Part shown: piece by piece, positions 38,953 to 44,893 of the stretch | How positions within the stretch are numbered: position 1 is the first letter of the stretch | How the letters are laid out: the number at the start of each line of letters is the position of its first letter | DNA from: Thalassobellus citreus | GTDB lineage: Bacteria; Bacteroidota; Bacteroidia; Flavobacteriales; Flavobacteriaceae | Direction of reading: 5' to 3' | Assembly: GCF_044385915.1 (NCBI RefSeq) | Contig: NZ_JBISCC010000113.1 | Location: forward strand, 12,152 to 76,151 | Length of the DNA stretch: 64,000 bases | The notes under the pieces: generated by a model | What the model was told of the DNA's origin: nothing | Database searches by the model: none | Seen by the model: the letters and a program-made list of their open reading frames with translations, nothing else | Made by a program: the position numbers and the translations under genes

Positions 38953-38976
38953 TACTACGCAAAAACATTGCGTATA
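38953..38976. promoter_or_regulatory. Palindromic operator (copy 2). Perfect TACGCAA-N5-TTGCGTA, upstream of ORF 39009 and divergent from WYL-2.
   Basis: tactacgcaaaaacattgcgtata then tacaaac then TAATACTTTG (-7 box). Confidence 0.6.
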
Positions 38977-39008
38977 CAAACTAATACTTTGTATCAAATA
39001 TTAAAACA

Positions 39009-39587
39009 ATGGAAGCTTTAAAATTAAAAATATTTGATGTCTTGACTGAAAAAATAGCTGTTTCAGAATTTGAAAACTGGCTGTATAATTCAGAGGAATT
39101 TATGAATCAATTAAATTCAAATTCGTTTTATTTTGATGTCATTTCAATTAACTACAAAACTACATGTTGGTCTAAAAACTTAAATAAGTTAGCAATAGAA
39201 AACTATGATGAAGATTTTATCATTTTATATGAAATTGAAAAGAGTTGTTTAGAAATAATAGATTCTAAAAGAGCAAATGAAGTATATGAAATTTTATCAA
39301 AATTAATTTACAACTTCGACTACGATACTGATTATAATATTTTATGGAAATTTTATGGTATTTATGAGTATTTCGAGTCATTTGAAGGAAGTATGTTCAA
39401 TAAAAATAAATTACTAAATGAAGCGAAATTTTACACAAAACAAGTCATTGAATTAACTCAAAATTGCATAAACTTTGAAGAAACAAATAAGGCATTAATT
39501 AAAGACTTAAAACCCTATAAAATTATCCAAAAAATGAAAAATCAAGCATTTAAAAACAAATTTCTTGCTTTTTTCAAAAAAATATAA
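39009..39587 (+). CDS. Hypothetical protein (192 aa) downstream of operator copy 2
   Basis: ORF only. Confidence 0.45.
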   Translation: MEALKLKIFDVLTEKIAVSEFENWLYNSEEFMNQLNSNSFYFDVISINYKTTCWSKNLNKLAIENYDEDFIILYEIEKSCLEIIDSKRANEVYEILSKLIYNFDYDTDYNILWKFYGIYEYFESFEGSMFNKNKLLNEAKFYTKQVIELTQNCINFEETNKALIKDLKPYKIIQKMKNQAFKNKFLAFFKKI

Positions 39588-39812
39588 TACTTCGTATTAT
39601 GGGTGCAATTTTTCAGAAAAAGAAAAAATAAATTTTGAAAAGTCAAAAATAAAGTTAAATCTTTGCAACGCATTTCAACCAAAACAGATGTTGAATTAAA
39701 AATTAGAAACTATGAGTTTATTTATAACATATCTAAATGATCCAAAAGGAATACCGCCTTTTGTGATGCTTCGTGATTATCGTTAGATAAACTTTTCAAA
39801 TTTATAAATGAA

Positions 39813-39849
39813 AAATCCGAAGCAATTTAAAACTGTTTCGGATTTTTTG
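39813..39849 (+). terminator. Hairpin plus T-tract
   Basis: aaatccgaa..ttcggattttttg. Confidence 0.45.
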
Positions 39850-39966
39850 TTTTCTACCGTTAACCATTCTGGTTAAAACATTCCCGAAATAGTAAAAATT
39901 TCAAGCTGAATTACATTTAGCACGCGAATAACGTGTACCTAAATGTGCTTCAAAATAACATTAAAA

Positions 39967-40662
39967 ATGAAAACTAAAATAATACAAATAACCTCTGGTC
40001 GAGGGCCAGCAGAATGTTGTTGGGTTGTTGCTCAAGTTCTAAAACATTTTTTAGAAGCTACAAAACACCATGGTATTGCTTATAAAATATTGCAAAGAGA
40101 AAAAGGCATTGAAAACATGACATTACAATCTGTTACTATTCAATTACAAGCAAAAACTCTGGATCAATTTTTAAGTCAATGGATTGGAACAATACAGTGG
40201 ATAGGCATTTCAACCTTTAGACCACAACACAAGCGAAAAAACTGGTTTGTAGCTTTAAATGAAATTGAACAAAAACAACAATTTCAAATTCATGAAAAAG
40301 ACATTGCATATCAAGCCACACGAAGTTCTGGACCTGGTGGCCAACATGTAAACAAAGTGAGTTCTGCTATTAGAGCTATTCATCTACCAACAAAAACACA
40401 AGTTTTGGTTATGGATAGTCGCTCGCAACATCAAAACAAAAAAATAGCTAAAATACGTTTACAAGAAAAAGTAAGCGAAATGCAATTGAAACTACTAAAA
40501 TCGAACATTAAAAACCAATGGGCAAACCACTTAAACATAGAACGCGGCAACCCTATACAAATTTTTAAAGGTTCAAATTTTAAAAAAAGCACCATTGTAA
40601 AAACGTATAAAAAACAACGCAAAGCATTGAAAAATGATTTGCAAAACGAATTAAATTATTAA
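39967..40662 (+). CDS. prfH: Peptide chain release factor homolog PrfH (RF-H). ORF-track start at 39943 is probably too early.
   Basis: N-terminus MKTKIIQITSGRGPAEC resembles PrfH. GGQ block SSGPGGQHVNKVSSAIR. Lacks the RF1/RF2 codon-recognition domain length. Confidence 0.7.
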   Translation: MKTKIIQITSGRGPAECCWVVAQVLKHFLEATKHHGIAYKILQREKGIENMTLQSVTIQLQAKTLDQFLSQWIGTIQWIGISTFRPQHKRKNWFVALNEIEQKQQFQIHEKDIAYQATRSSGPGGQHVNKVSSAIRAIHLPTKTQVLVMDSRSQHQNKKIAKIRLQEKVSEMQLKLLKSNIKNQWANHLNIERGNPIQIFKGSNFKKSTIVKTYKKQRKALKNDLQNELNY

Positions 40663-41760: not shown

Positions 41761-42143
41761 ACTTTTAAAATAGACCACCAAGTGCGTCACACTTTAAATG
41801 GCAAAAACAAAGTGAACTAAAACTAGCAAAGGCAATTTATTGCTTAAGCAGTCCAGAAAACACCTTGACATACACAGGTATTAAAAGTTGTTTTAGGTTT
41901 TCTTTTTAAAGATTCATTATTCAGTAAGTGATTCTGCAAATAAGCAGTTTTAAAATTGATTAATCATCTACAAAACAAGACTTAAAAACACTTAAAATCA
42001 GTTGTATGTCCGTCGTTAGAAAGATGGTTTTCTTTTGCTTTGTTTTAATAACAAATAGCCATTCTCAAAAAGAGGATTCTATTATAAATGTTTAACAGTT
42101 CTGAAGTAAGAAGTAAAAACAAAAGAACAAAAAATTAGAAATC

Positions 42144-43244
42144 ATGAAAAGAGTAAGAATTCATGCAGGTATTGTAGGTTTAGTGTTTAAAAACGGTAAT
42201 TATGCACGCGTAATTACAGAAGGAAAGCACTGGATAAACTTTAGAGAGCAAGTTATAAAATACGATTTAACTCAAACTTTCAACGCACCAAAAGCATTAG
42301 AAATCTTACTTAAAGATCAAGCTTTGGCAGACATGTTAACGGTTATAGAAGTAAAGGATAATGAGATTGTTTTAGTTTACGAAAACAAAAATTTCAAACG
42401 TGTATTAACCGCAGGTCGTTATACCTTTTGGAATAACTTGATCGATTATAAATTTGTAACTGCAGATTTGAGTAAAATCAAAATCTCGGAAGATATAAAC
42501 AAAACCTTGTTTAGCAATGCACAATTACGCCCATACATTCGTGCATTTGAAGTTGCAGCTTACGAAAAAGCAGTTTTAATTATTGACGATGTGTTTGTTA
42601 AAACCCTTGAACATGGCACATACCATTTCTGGAGAAACGAGCAAACCATTAAAATCGCAAAAGCAGATATGCGTCAGTTGCAATTAGAAATCGCTGGTCA
42701 AGAATTATTAACTAAAGACAAAGCAACCGTTCGTATTAACTTTTATGCACAATATAAAGTCACAGCAATCGAAACTGCTTTAATGCGTAACAAAGAATAC
42801 GAAAAGCAATTGTACATTACATTACAATTGGCATTACGCGCATTTATTGGAGCTTACTCTTTAGATGAATTGTTAGAGCAAAAGGAAACAATTGCCGAAG
42901 CCGTTTTAAAAGATGTAAAAACACAAGCCAATAAATTAGGTGTCGATGTGTTACATGCAGGCATTAGAGATGTCATTTTGCCAGGCGATATGAAAGATAT
43001 CATGAACCAGGTTTTAATTGCATACAAAAAAGCGCAAGCCAATGTAGTAACAAGACGTGAAGAAACAGCCTCCACTAGAAGCTTGTTAAATACCGCGAAA
43101 TTAATGGAAGACAACACCATGTTGTTCAAATTAAAAGAAATGGAATATGTTGAGAAAATAGCCGATAAAATTGGCGAGATTACAGTTGCAGGAAACGGCA
43201 ACGTCATCGAACAATTAAAAGATATATTCTCTGTAAATAAGTAA
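42144..43244 (+). CDS. SPFH/band-7 domain protein (copy 2)
   Basis: MKRVRIHAGIVGLVFKNGNY..GKHWINF SPFH N-terminus. Length 366 aa. Confidence 0.65.
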   Translation: MKRVRIHAGIVGLVFKNGNYARVITEGKHWINFREQVIKYDLTQTFNAPKALEILLKDQALADMLTVIEVKDNEIVLVYENKNFKRVLTAGRYTFWNNLIDYKFVTADLSKIKISEDINKTLFSNAQLRPYIRAFEVAAYEKAVLIIDDVFVKTLEHGTYHFWRNEQTIKIAKADMRQLQLEIAGQELLTKDKATVRINFYAQYKVTAIETALMRNKEYEKQLYITLQLALRAFIGAYSLDELLEQKETIAEAVLKDVKTQANKLGVDVLHAGIRDVILPGDMKDIMNQVLIAYKKAQANVVTRREETASTRSLLNTAKLMEDNTMLFKLKEMEYVEKIADKIGEITVAGNGNVIEQLKDIFSVNK

Positions 43245-43420
43245 GGCTATGGCGTACCCCAAACCAGAAAAAGGTTTGGGTCGCGCTTTCCGCTATATCT
43301 TTTGCAAAAAAAGCAAAAGGATGCCGCATCAATCGCTTACGCAGGCATACTTGCTTTCTATTTGCGTCATTCTAAACGTGTTTTAGAATCACATAAATAT
43401 ATTATTTTAAAAGAAAAAAC

Positions 43421-43445
43421 AACTACGCAAAACTATTGCGCAATA
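43421..43445 (+). promoter_or_regulatory. Palindromic operator (copy 4) plus -7 box upstream of rtcB-2
   Basis: aactacgcaaaactattgcgcaata then tac then TATAATATTTG. Lies 39 nt before the ATG. Confidence 0.6.
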
Positions 43446-43483
43446 TACTATAATATTTGTAGTGTAATTAAAAAACAAGAACA

Positions 43484-44893
43484 ATGTCAACAGAAACAAA
43501 AGTAACAGGATATACATTAAAAGCATTAGGCTTTAAACAAGGAAAATGGATGAAAGAAGCCATAAATTATATTAACGAAAACAAATTAGAAGGAGACACT
43601 ATGGAAACATATTTAGAGCAATTTAAATTGCCAGATCCTATTGGTTTGCATGAAAAACCATTAGAGTTTTCTATAAATATTAAAGCAGAAAATGATGAGG
43701 AGAAGGACAATGTCTCTAAAGTAATAAACTCCATGGAAACCTTAATGAAAACGCCAACATTAGTTGCTGGAGCTATCATGCCAGATGCTTGTCCAGCAGG
43801 ACCAGACGGAACCATTCCTGTTGGCGGTGTGGCAGTTGCAAAAAACGCCATTCATCCAGGTATGCATAGTGCAGATATTTGTTGCTCAGTCATGTTAACC
43901 GATTTTGGCAAAACAGACCCAAAAGACATTTTAGATGCTGCACATGCCAATACACATTTTGGTCCAGGAGGACGCGATAGAGATTCGCAATTTAGATTTC
44001 CTAAAGAATTATTAGAAGCATTTGAAGCGAACTACTTTTTAAACGATGGTAACATGCTACAAATAGCAAGATCTCATTTCGGAACACAAGGCGATGGCAA
44101 TCATTTCCTGTTTGTCGGAACCTCTAAAAAAACAGGGAACACAATGATGGTTACCCATCACGGATCTAGAGGTCCTGGTGCTAAATTGTACACAAAAGGC
44201 ATGAAAGTAGCAGAACGTTTTAGACGCGATTTATCGCCAGATACTAAAAAAGAAAATGCGTGGATTCCTTTTAAAACTGATGAAGGTCAAGCCTACTGGG
44301 ATGCATTGCAAACTATAAGAAATTGGACAAAAGCTAATCATGAAGTCATTCATAATTCGGTAGCCGAAACCTTAGAAATTGCTATTGAAAACCGATACTG
44401 GAACGAACACAACTTCGTTTTTAAAGATAACGATTTGTTTTACCATGCCAAAGGAGCAACACCTTTAGACGCCAAGTTTATGCCAGATATTACAGGCCCT
44501 AGATTAATTCCGTTAAACATGAGCGAACCTGTTTTAATTGTTGAAGGCACAACTACTAAAACCAATTTAGGTTTTGCTCCTCATGGTGCGGGTAGAAATA
44601 TTAGTAGAACGCAACATAGAAAAAGCAAAACAGGAACTATTATGCAGATTTTTAAGGAAGAAACCAGAGGTTTAGATGTTCGGTTTTTCTCAAAAGAAAT
44701 TGATATTACCGAGTTACCAAGCGCCTACAAAAATGCAAAAGCCGTAAGAGCACAAATGGACGAATACGGTTTAGGTAAGGTTATTGATGAGGTTATGCCT
44801 TATGGCTGTATTATGGCTGGAGATTTTCAGAAAAATGCACCTTGGAAGATTCGAAGAGATAAGAAACGAGCAAGAAATAAAAACAGATCTTAG
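43484..44893 (+). CDS. rtcB: RtcB-family RNA ligase (copy 2, RtcB2-like)
   Basis: Same catalytic blocks as copy 1. About 75% identity. Sits in a PrfH neighbourhood. Confidence 0.85.

Follow-up and report, generated by a model that had tools for sequence, protein, structure and literature searches.

An orphan prfH-TPR gene pair probably adjoins a separate RtcB/Band-7/tRNA-like RNA module in Thalassobellus citreus

In Escherichia coli ATCC 25922 a release-factor homolog and an RNA ligase are encoded together in the rtcB2-prfH operon, a known rescue-and-repair system (PMC9304027, PMC9223846). A stretch of the genome of Thalassobellus citreus (Flavobacteriaceae), positions 38953-44893 of the 64-kb piece of DNA analyzed here (the window, to whose positions all coordinates refer), also carries a prfH and an rtcB gene, and the original prediction read it as an expanded form of the known pair that had been split apart. 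We propose instead, with a probability of roughly 70%, that this stretch holds an orphan prfH-TPR pair beside an RtcB/Band-7/tRNA-like RNA module, rather than one stretched prfH-rtcB2 pair. In other words, two known kinds of translation-repair system are likely neighbors here, the second of which belongs to a regulon defined by a common operator.

Three further bodies of work frame this comparison. The PrfH-CT subfamily is typical of Flavobacteriia and has a basic C-terminal tail (Tian et al. 2026, PMC12829566); the PrfH-CT of Capnocytophaga releases peptide both from ribosomes whose 16S rRNA is cut at A1493 and from intact non-stop ribosomes (PMC12829566). A system of RtcB, Band-7 and a “b7a-tRNA” has been predicted, with YrlA occasionally found beside Band-7 (Burroughs & Aravind 2016, as relayed in bioRxiv 10.1101/312249). 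In Anabaena under translational stress, a single repressor, TrcR, governs rtcB, a slipin gene and a tRNA array known as the L-array (PMC10272220, PMC8421152).

The prfH gene lies at 39967-40662 (+) within a full open reading frame (ORF) of 39943-40662, and the likely start at 39967 gives the 231-aa protein of the GenBank annotation; nine proteins of the locus are identical to GenBank proteins of T. citreus. That the GGQ protein is PrfH, as was originally predicted, is borne out by profile searches: it scores 219.4 bits on the NCBIfam PrfH model TIGR03072 (IPR017509), over the cut-off of 166.65, and falls far under the cut-offs of the other release factors (RF2 106.5 bits against 370, RF1 75.5 against 400, ArfB 47.3 against 100). 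The GGQ motif stands in SGPGGQHVNK, and the architecture is that of a shortened release factor without the N-terminal domain, aligning only to positions 116-315 of the RF2 profile. Among proteins of solved structure its best match is Capnocytophaga gingivalis PrfH (PDB 9mor, 231 aa), with which it aligns end to end at 261 bits over residues 1-225. With a length within the 225-250 aa of the subfamily, N50, the basic C-terminal tail KKSTIVKTYKKQRKALKNDL and a host in the Flavobacteriia, the protein is a PrfH-CT.

Four nucleotides past the prfH stop begins a gene for a TPR protein with a Lys-rich C-terminal tail (40667-41200, +), which matches several TPR Pfam families, each under its cut-off. 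Onto each of 69 prfH loci (numbered with an L below), 43 of them from Flavobacteriaceae, we mapped the proteins of the window. Of the Flavobacteriaceae loci, 41 have the TPR gene 3' of prfH; it is not found at the Mucilaginibacter or proteobacterial prfH loci. The paper that describes PrfH-CT makes no mention of it (PMC12829566). This tight linkage of a TPR gene to prfH in Flavobacteriaceae is one difference from the rtcB2-prfH operon; the other is that the prfH of the window has no adjacent prfH-type rtcB, and the RtcB nearby is of another clade.

What happened to the expected partner can be read from the relatives. The gene for a 463-aa RtcB stops just short of prfH, on its 5' side, in 28 of the 43 loci from Flavobacteriaceae, the same arrangement as in Proteobacteria, so that the usual operon is rtcB(prfH-type)-prfH-TPR. 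This upstream rtcB is missing from the locus in the window and in 14 other loci, from Algibacter, Olleya, several Winogradskyella and Lacinutrix and one Polaribacter. A tblastn search found no remnant of the prfH-type rtcB in 39588-39966, and a search of the whole window with four prfH-type RtcBs matched only the two distant paralogs described below. One related locus (L006, 7232-8140) retains a 302-aa remnant of the prfH-type rtcB 5' of prfH and seems to show an intermediate of the loss that the lineage of the window has completed. Because relatives keep a 463-aa RtcB, different from the ligase nearby, directly 5' of prfH and this cognate gene is absent here, the known pair has not been pulled apart; rather, the cognate gene is gone and another system stands next door.

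The prfH gene has nevertheless been kept. It is full length throughout the clade that lost rtcB, with ratios of nonsynonymous to synonymous substitution (dN/dS) of 0.13-0.27 against relatives, and by this measure prfH-TPR is kept under purifying selection in a lineage without an upstream rtcB. Full length and low dN/dS in the absence of that gene thus mark prfH-TPR as a maintained “orphan.” By analogy with the Capnocytophaga protein, such an orphan would fit the ligase-independent rescue of non-stop ribosomes reported for PrfH-CT.

The nearby ligase gene (RtcB “b,” 469 aa, 43484-44893, +; Pfam RtcB PF01139, 132.8 bits) starts 2.82 kb past the prfH stop and is followed by a terminator-like hairpin at 44899-44934. 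It had been described as RtcB2-like, a label that does not survive comparison with the family model. On TIGR03073, the model for PrfH-coupled RtcB (cut-off 271.8 bits), it scores 47.9 bits and the first RtcB paralog of the window, RtcB “a” (2882-4279, -), 57.5 bits, where proteobacterial prfH-adjacent RtcBs score 504-517 bits; the prfH-adjacent 463-aa RtcBs of Flavobacteriaceae, at 141-150 bits, are likewise under the cut-off. A neighbor-joining tree of 39 RtcBs with E. coli RtcB as its root resolves three clades: the proteobacterial prfH-adjacent proteins, the Bacteroidota prfH-adjacent proteins, and a long-branch clade, outside both, of the two window copies and their orthologs, which we call the operator-controlled clade for reasons given below. 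The window RtcBs share 28-30% identity with the prfH-type RtcB of Flavobacteriaceae and 21% with proteobacterial RtcB2, and on profile and tree the protein at 43484-44893 is not RtcB2-like.

Within the operator-controlled clade, the “a” and “b” lineages are 75% identical in the window. The two copies therefore largely lack the divergence between subfamilies on which the original prediction had staked itself, but they are not recent duplicates, since the a/b split predates several genera. RtcB “b” conserves the counterparts of E. coli D75, C78, N167, H168, H185, H281, H337 and R341, the catalytic residues for metal binding and guanylylation known from mutagenesis work of the Shuman laboratory. 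Its clade shows MPDAC where other RtcBs show MPDxH, and carries a basic C-terminal tail.

One alternative is that RtcB “b,” or its paralog at 2882, is the working ligase of PrfH, having displaced the prfH-type RtcB in the resealing of 16S rRNA once PrfH has released the stalled ribosome. Its catalytic residues are intact and its basic tail could bind rRNA; moreover, the loci that lack the upstream rtcB, L006 aside, all carry an RtcB of the operator-controlled clade 0.5-5.5 kb past the prfH stop. In Polaribacter vadi (L035, 9002-11606) the order is prfH-TPR-rtcB(a-type)-rlaP, with the stop of the TPR gene overlapping the start of rtcB. This is the sole locus seen in which an RtcB of the operator-controlled clade is apparently co-transcribed with prfH; its arrangement makes a working link between PrfH-CT and this clade possible, and PrfH could work together with such an RtcB. 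However, the protein lies well outside the family of PrfH-coupled ligases and in a separate clade, and RtcBs of both types occur together in ten loci (L016, L017, L024-27, L030, L032, L034 and L046). Because many genomes have both, the two types are not simply interchangeable. In the window, RtcB “b” has its own operator and promoter, with an entire RNA/SPFH unit between it and prfH, and no ligase is needed when PrfH-CT acts on undamaged non-stop ribosomes (PMC12829566). We consider this displacement somewhat unlikely, although it is the alternative to our orphan prfH-TPR reading to which we give the most weight.

The second system occupies the space between prfH-TPR and RtcB “b.” It opens with a tRNA-Tyr (GTA) without an encoded CCA (41357-41439/41440, +; ARAGORN; 57.7 bits on the Rfam tRNA model), of the type found in the tRNA arrays of relatives. 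Over 15 copies its anticodon loop is invariant and its stems carry compensatory changes; judged by this pattern, it is evolving as a genuine tRNA. Directly after it comes a conserved structured non-coding RNA of about 700 nt (41441-42143, +), defined by conservation and covariation, in which there is no ORF of more than 37 aa. In 14 loci that span several genera this RNA keeps 72-80% nucleotide identity, much as the coding genes on either side do. It lies 3' of tRNA-Tyr and, at all SPFH loci examined, 5' of the SPFH gene.

The fold, derived with RNAalifold, begins with a 5' domain (S1, 41442-41531, +) closed by a 10-bp stem. The tRNA-like elements, at 41565-41743 overall, consist of two circularly permuted modules, A (41568-41638, +) and B (41646-41716, +), and an anticodon-arm-like hairpin (41725-41741, +). 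Module A is tRNA-like but opened at the anticodon position; its closing stem, AUCUAU/AUAGAU, is followed by the T-arm, then by an acceptor stem capped with a loop, and then by the D-arm. Module B repeats this order and adds an anticodon-like arm, the “anticodon” sequence of which is not conserved. Farther on are a conserved GACCACCA (41773-41780, +) and hairpins in the 5' untranslated region of the SPFH gene (~42060-42130, +). These are the elements that had been noticed as an array of tRNA-like fragments. Their presence was correctly seen; they are, however, modules of a conserved structured RNA and not fragments.

The structure is well supported by an alignment of 15 sequences, checked against controls in which pairing partners were slid and against 500 shuffles. 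Across the 109 pairs, 97.5% of cells are paired, against ~39% with partners slid, and compensatory changes occur in 42 pairs, against 7-14 when slid; none of the 500 shuffles matched the observed cells paired, the compensatory pairs or cells, or the covariation score. The tRNA-like domain shares in this support, as pairing stands at 96-100% in helices 4-7 of module A and helices 8-12 of module B, and most of the pairs carry compensatory changes. In the loop-closed “acceptor” hairpins, compensatory change is seen in all five pairs of one and all six of the other. In the window and in 16 related loci, a covariance model built on modules A and B (R1) has exactly one strong match (87-204 bits) ahead of each SPFH gene; weak matches fall at tRNA-tRNA junctions within the arrays of relatives. 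Because of these weak junction matches, modules A and B evidently descend from array tRNAs, although they are now a separate conserved entity.

This origin raises the alternative that a once larger tRNA array decayed here, leaving tRNA-Tyr as its sole survivor and the tRNA-like elements as remains without function. Relatives do carry arrays of 8-18 tRNAs in the same island (L003 13408-15419; L008 12900-14630; L016 12044-13284; L017 12819-14568; L023 12358-13324; L024 10953-12712; L032 11596-13314), five of the seven lying 3' of the same operator as in the window, which has one operator-headed tRNA. Several tRNA-Leu genes of these arrays are only 75 nt long and so are without the long variable arm. 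The D-arm and anticodon arm of module B resemble array tRNA-Leu(UAG) and the next hairpin resembles the anticodon arm of tRNA-Leu(UAA), so that the array gene order is kept; the junction matches of R1 and the unconserved “anticodon” of module B also accord with decay. Decay alone would not be expected to leave some 700 nt at this level of identity across genera, nor closed “acceptor” hairpins that pair strands of two different tRNAs and are kept by compensatory changes. Two related loci (L016 and L017) carry both a full tRNA array and the structured-RNA unit, each at a separate operator, and one full-length copy precedes every SPFH gene. We have therefore dropped the decayed remnant as an account of function, given the conservation, the covariation and the coexistence with full arrays, and regard it as very improbable; the idea stands solely for the evolutionary origin of the tRNA-like modules.

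The nearest described RNA is YrlA (RF02553), encoded in Salmonella within rsr-yrlBA-rtcBA. Against its Rfam model, module A scores 40.4 bits, a significant match (E=2.8e-7) that stays under the gathering score of 69, and the likeness extends to the closing stem, the T-arm, the loop-closed acceptor-like stem, the D-arm and the location beside rtcB. The window departs from YrlA in that its two modules stand in tandem, are set in a conserved RNA of far greater length and evidently arose from the tRNAs of local arrays; the long Ro60-binding stem of YrlA also has no match here.

The structured RNA leads into the gene for an SPFH/Band-7 (slipin-family) protein of 366 aa (42144-43244, +; Pfam Band_7, 93.7 bits), which has no obvious transmembrane segment and a 100% match named slipin family protein in T. 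citreus. Some 30 nt past its stop and before the rtcB operator lies a Flavo-1 RNA motif (RF01705; 43275-43351, -; 52.5 bits, gathering score 42). The same placement is seen in three of the seven relatives scanned (L004 12308-12390; L009 14364-14440; L013 12492-12647), which hints that this orphan motif belongs to the repair module. Counting RtcB, the order tRNA-Tyr, tRNA-like modules, SPFH, RtcB recurs in 13 related loci. By the summary cited above, the window resembles the b7a-tRNA system in that rtcB adjoins a Band-7/SPFH gene and a tRNA-like RNA gene, with a YrlA-like mimic beside the Band-7 gene. It appears to differ from that description in its composite RNA, made up of a true tRNA-Tyr and an RNA of ~700 nt with two permuted modules and further conserved domains, and in the division of the unit between two operator-headed transcription units whose candidate regulators are WYL proteins.

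The element that unites this second system is the operator. The sequence ACTACGCAAAANNATTGCG has four exact matches in the window against 0.17 expected, a number reached in none of 100 shuffles. O1 (38954-38972, +) lies in the intergenic region between the divergent WYL-PhyH and ORF192 genes, O2 (41213-41231, +) heads the RNA/SPFH unit, O3 (43422-43440, +) heads rtcB “b,” and O4 (4387-4405, -) heads the RtcB “a” operon. Across the loci compared there are 65 copies, in Flavobacteriaceae only, each set before a repair gene or an RNA unit and at a fixed spacing from a -7-type box. Their consensus reads tttaACTACGCAAAAa.ATTGCGyAAta...ta.aAtaTTTG, in which the palindrome ACGCAA-N5-TTGCGT lies ~11-12 nt 5' of the AAnnTTTG -7-type box, at the position of the -33 element; by direct reading, the small gene at 39655 has a canonical -33 element instead (TTG-N20-AATCTTTG).

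Because each operator lies just 5' of a promoter-like AAnnTTTG box, each probably heads its own unit. The units so headed are ORF192; the leader, tRNA-Tyr, structured RNA and SPFH; RtcB “b”; RtcB “a” with a CCA/HD protein and RlaP; and RlaP alone, to which relatives add those that precede tRNA arrays. The original prediction had correctly located the two operators near 41212 and 43421; its view that they bracket one set gives way to one in which O2 and O3 probably each start a transcript. Following O2 is a 5' leader of two hairpins (41267-41328, +), a second copy of which follows O4 (~4294-4351, -) and ends in an attenuator-like T-run. Nine of the 14 predicted pairs of this leader are compensatory over 19 aligned copies, and its second hairpin has 10 bp. 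We considered a known ribozyme or riboswitch and ruled it out, the best Rfam match having E=2.6.

Candidates for the operator binder lie next to O1 and O4. Divergent from the O1 units, where it had been predicted, is a 573-aa regulator (37194-38915, -; Pfam WYL 45.3, WCX 29.1 and PhyH 41 bits) that GenBank names WYL domain-containing protein. It consists of a winged helix-turn-helix (wHTH), WYL and WCX domains followed by a C-terminal PhyH-like Fe(II)/2-oxoglutarate dioxygenase domain in which the HxD...H triad is readable; a sequence search with the PhyH-like domain returned no solved relative. A second WYL-WCX regulator (5060-6082, +) stands beside O4. In both, WYL and WCX exceed the Pfam cut-offs and PADLOC WYL models match as well; the two are 54% identical over 336 aa, with nearly identical N-terminal wHTH parts, and a plain WYL paralog takes the position of WYL-PhyH in L010-L012 and L016. 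From their sequences and placement, these two paralogs are likely the operator binders. They share with PafBC, DriD and BrxR/CapW the wHTH-WYL-WCX architecture, the divergence from likely targets and a palindromic promoter-proximal operator, but differ in that the targets act on RNA and not in DNA damage or phage defense, and in the PhyH-like domain of one paralog.

The O4 part of the regulon lies ~35 kb away and comprises O4, the leader copy, RtcB “a,” a CCA-type nucleotidyltransferase with an HD domain (1446-2825, -), RlaP (695-1441, -) and a second RlaP (3-698, -) that is cut by the edge of the window. ORF205 (4443-5060, +) is divergent from this operon, together with the second WYL regulator. 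The regulon as a whole resembles that of Anabaena, where a promoter-proximal DNA motif is likewise common to tRNA genes, RtcB and SPFH/slipin, and the arrays of relatives under the same operator extend the likeness. However, the candidate regulators of the window are WYL-domain proteins and not the ribbon-helix-helix TrcR, and its operator is a palindrome in the -33 region, whereas that of TrcR consists of direct repeats over the -10 box and transcription start. The window also keeps one tRNA and the mimic RNA with no array, and its island adds RlaP, the CCA enzyme and PrfH.

The region between O1 and prfH bears on whether prfH is part of this regulon. The first gene past O1 is ORF192 (39009-39587, +), a hypothetical protein with 52 homologs, all in Flavobacteriaceae, that sits behind an operator in 10 related loci. 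It has no match in Pfam, NCBIfam or PADLOC; its AlphaFold2 (AF2) model is all-alpha with a mean predicted local distance difference test (pLDDT) of 88.8 and has no match at E<1 in a Foldseek search against the PDB. Between ORF192 and prfH is an unannotated small conserved gene (39655-39852, +) with a promoter, a 24-codon ORF at 39712-39786 (MSLFITYLNDPKGIPPFVMLRDYR) and a strong intrinsic terminator at 39811-39852. Always 3' of O1/ORF192, it is 74-92% identical in nucleotide sequence in 16 related loci, exceeding the flanking ORF192, and keeps its start, stop and terminator; neither Rfam nor Pfam matches it, and it may be a micropeptide gene or a small RNA. Its stem-loop probably ends transcription from O1 before prfH. 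We rejected the idea that the small ORF and terminator are a leader-peptide attenuator of prfH, as the element lies 0.9-1.1 kb from prfH in many loci, separated from it by other DNA, and, in L003, 2.3 kb upstream of rtcB.

Several points weigh against the reading of an orphan prfH-TPR beside an operator-defined module. There is no operator directly upstream of prfH, with the terminator intervening after O1, so that prfH may lie outside the regulon. The binding of WYL proteins to the operator is predicted only from adjacency and co-occurrence, and the sequence would fit activation as well as repression. The YrlA match is below threshold, with the Ro60-binding outer stems mismatched in the alignment, and a search of the proteins of the locus and of six large untyped window ORFs found no TROVE/Ro60 domain. 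Finally, the window covers 64 kb of the genome, and a prfH-type rtcB could lie elsewhere in T. citreus. Among the top 120 homologs of prfH-type RtcB (at least 78% identity), many of them unnamed entries, no protein is labeled T. citreus, which is suggestive only in speaking against such a second gene.

Apart from the splitting and the RtcB2 label, the original prediction described the region well: every feature that it listed lies at or within a few bases of where it was placed, and the locus is indeed related to RNA repair.

Hypothetically, the two systems would work as follows. System 1 is prfH-TPR, derived from an ancestral rtcB(prfH-type)-prfH-TPR operon that lost its upstream rtcB in the lineage of the window. 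System 2 would consist of two transcription units, with O2 driving the leader, tRNA-Tyr, structured RNA and SPFH, and O3 driving RtcB. RNA damage or translational stress would produce a signal, probably RNA fragments, that is sensed by the WYL domains of both paralogous regulators; these would bind ACGCAA-N5-TTGCGT at the -33 position and turn all units on together. RNase P and RNase Z would then free tRNA-Tyr, at once setting the 5' end of the structured RNA. The tRNA-mimic RNA and SPFH could serve as a cofactor, scaffold or decoy in the sealing of cut tRNA or rRNA by RtcB, while the CCA enzyme and RlaP would restore damaged 3' ends and PrfH-CT would clear stalled ribosomes. Which way control runs, what induces it and what the RNA and SPFH do are all proposals of this scheme, as is the binder itself.

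The boldest form of this scheme holds that in marine Flavobacteriaceae a WYL-run RNA-damage regulon has as its core a ribonucleoprotein (RNP) in which the permuted-tRNA RNA, released behind its tRNA-Tyr handle, joins with soluble SPFH and an RtcB from the operator-controlled clade, and that this RNP has taken over 16S resealing for PrfH-CT in lineages whose prfH-coupled ligase was lost. We regard it as improbable; if true, the RNP would give Flavo-1 and the two-hairpin leader their first functional context.

A different role for the RNA follows if the island counters tRNA-cutting toxins, such as the anticodon nucleases of competitors or of phage-defense systems, with an inducible tRNA-Tyr and the tRNA mimics supplying spare parts, decoys or sponges and RtcB, CCA enzyme and RlaP carrying out repair. 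This alternative overlaps our scheme and differs from it solely in the role given to the RNA. In Anabaena, the array tRNAs have been proposed as sponges for toxin RNases, and their co-regulation with rtcB has been shown (PMC8421152). Genes flanking the arrays of relatives in this island encode an Rnl2-type RNA ligase, an RNase H-like protein (PF04308), a metallophosphoesterase and RlaP; the ligase, phosphoesterase and RlaP recall the tRNA repair set of phage T4. The tRNA most often kept in the reduced units is tRNA-Tyr, and Tyr tRNA is among the targets of colicin E5-type nucleases. However, module A has no anticodon loop and that of module B is variable, so that either is poorly designed to lure an anticodon nuclease. 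The locus yielded no toxin or nuclease gene, and PADLOC matches only its WYL domains. We consider a toxin-countering role for the RNA unlikely, and the repair role in the scheme above remains our working proposal.

Elsewhere in the window there are some candidates for defense-type genes, namely an AAA_15/AAA_21 ATPase (25773-27662, -), a CHAT-domain protein followed by a 1333-aa ORF (56786-62700, +), and a SWIM zinc-finger protein adjoining a 980-aa ORF (11879-16169, -).

What is new in this locus is that WYL regulators and an operator of palindromic form occur together with a composite RNA and an RtcB from a distinct clade, next to an orphan prfH-TPR. A prfH found near an rtcB would ordinarily be annotated as the characterized pair, but here the cognate ligase has been lost from the locus and the neighbor is another system. 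Given the published dual activity of PrfH-CT, the protein is predicted to be able to work without a ligase, and the 14 related genomes that, with the window, keep prfH-TPR without a prfH-type rtcB at the locus are natural experiments, as is the one genome that joins prfH-TPR to the other RtcB clade. The locus also offers a covarying RNA with which to ask what tRNA-like RNAs and Band-7 proteins, whose roles have so far been predicted, do beside RtcB. Its clean operator and WYL candidates provide material on how RNA repair is switched in bacteria without RtcR. The finding is thus mainly of interest to specialists in RNA repair and ribosome rescue, for whom this flavobacterial locus would be clean test material.

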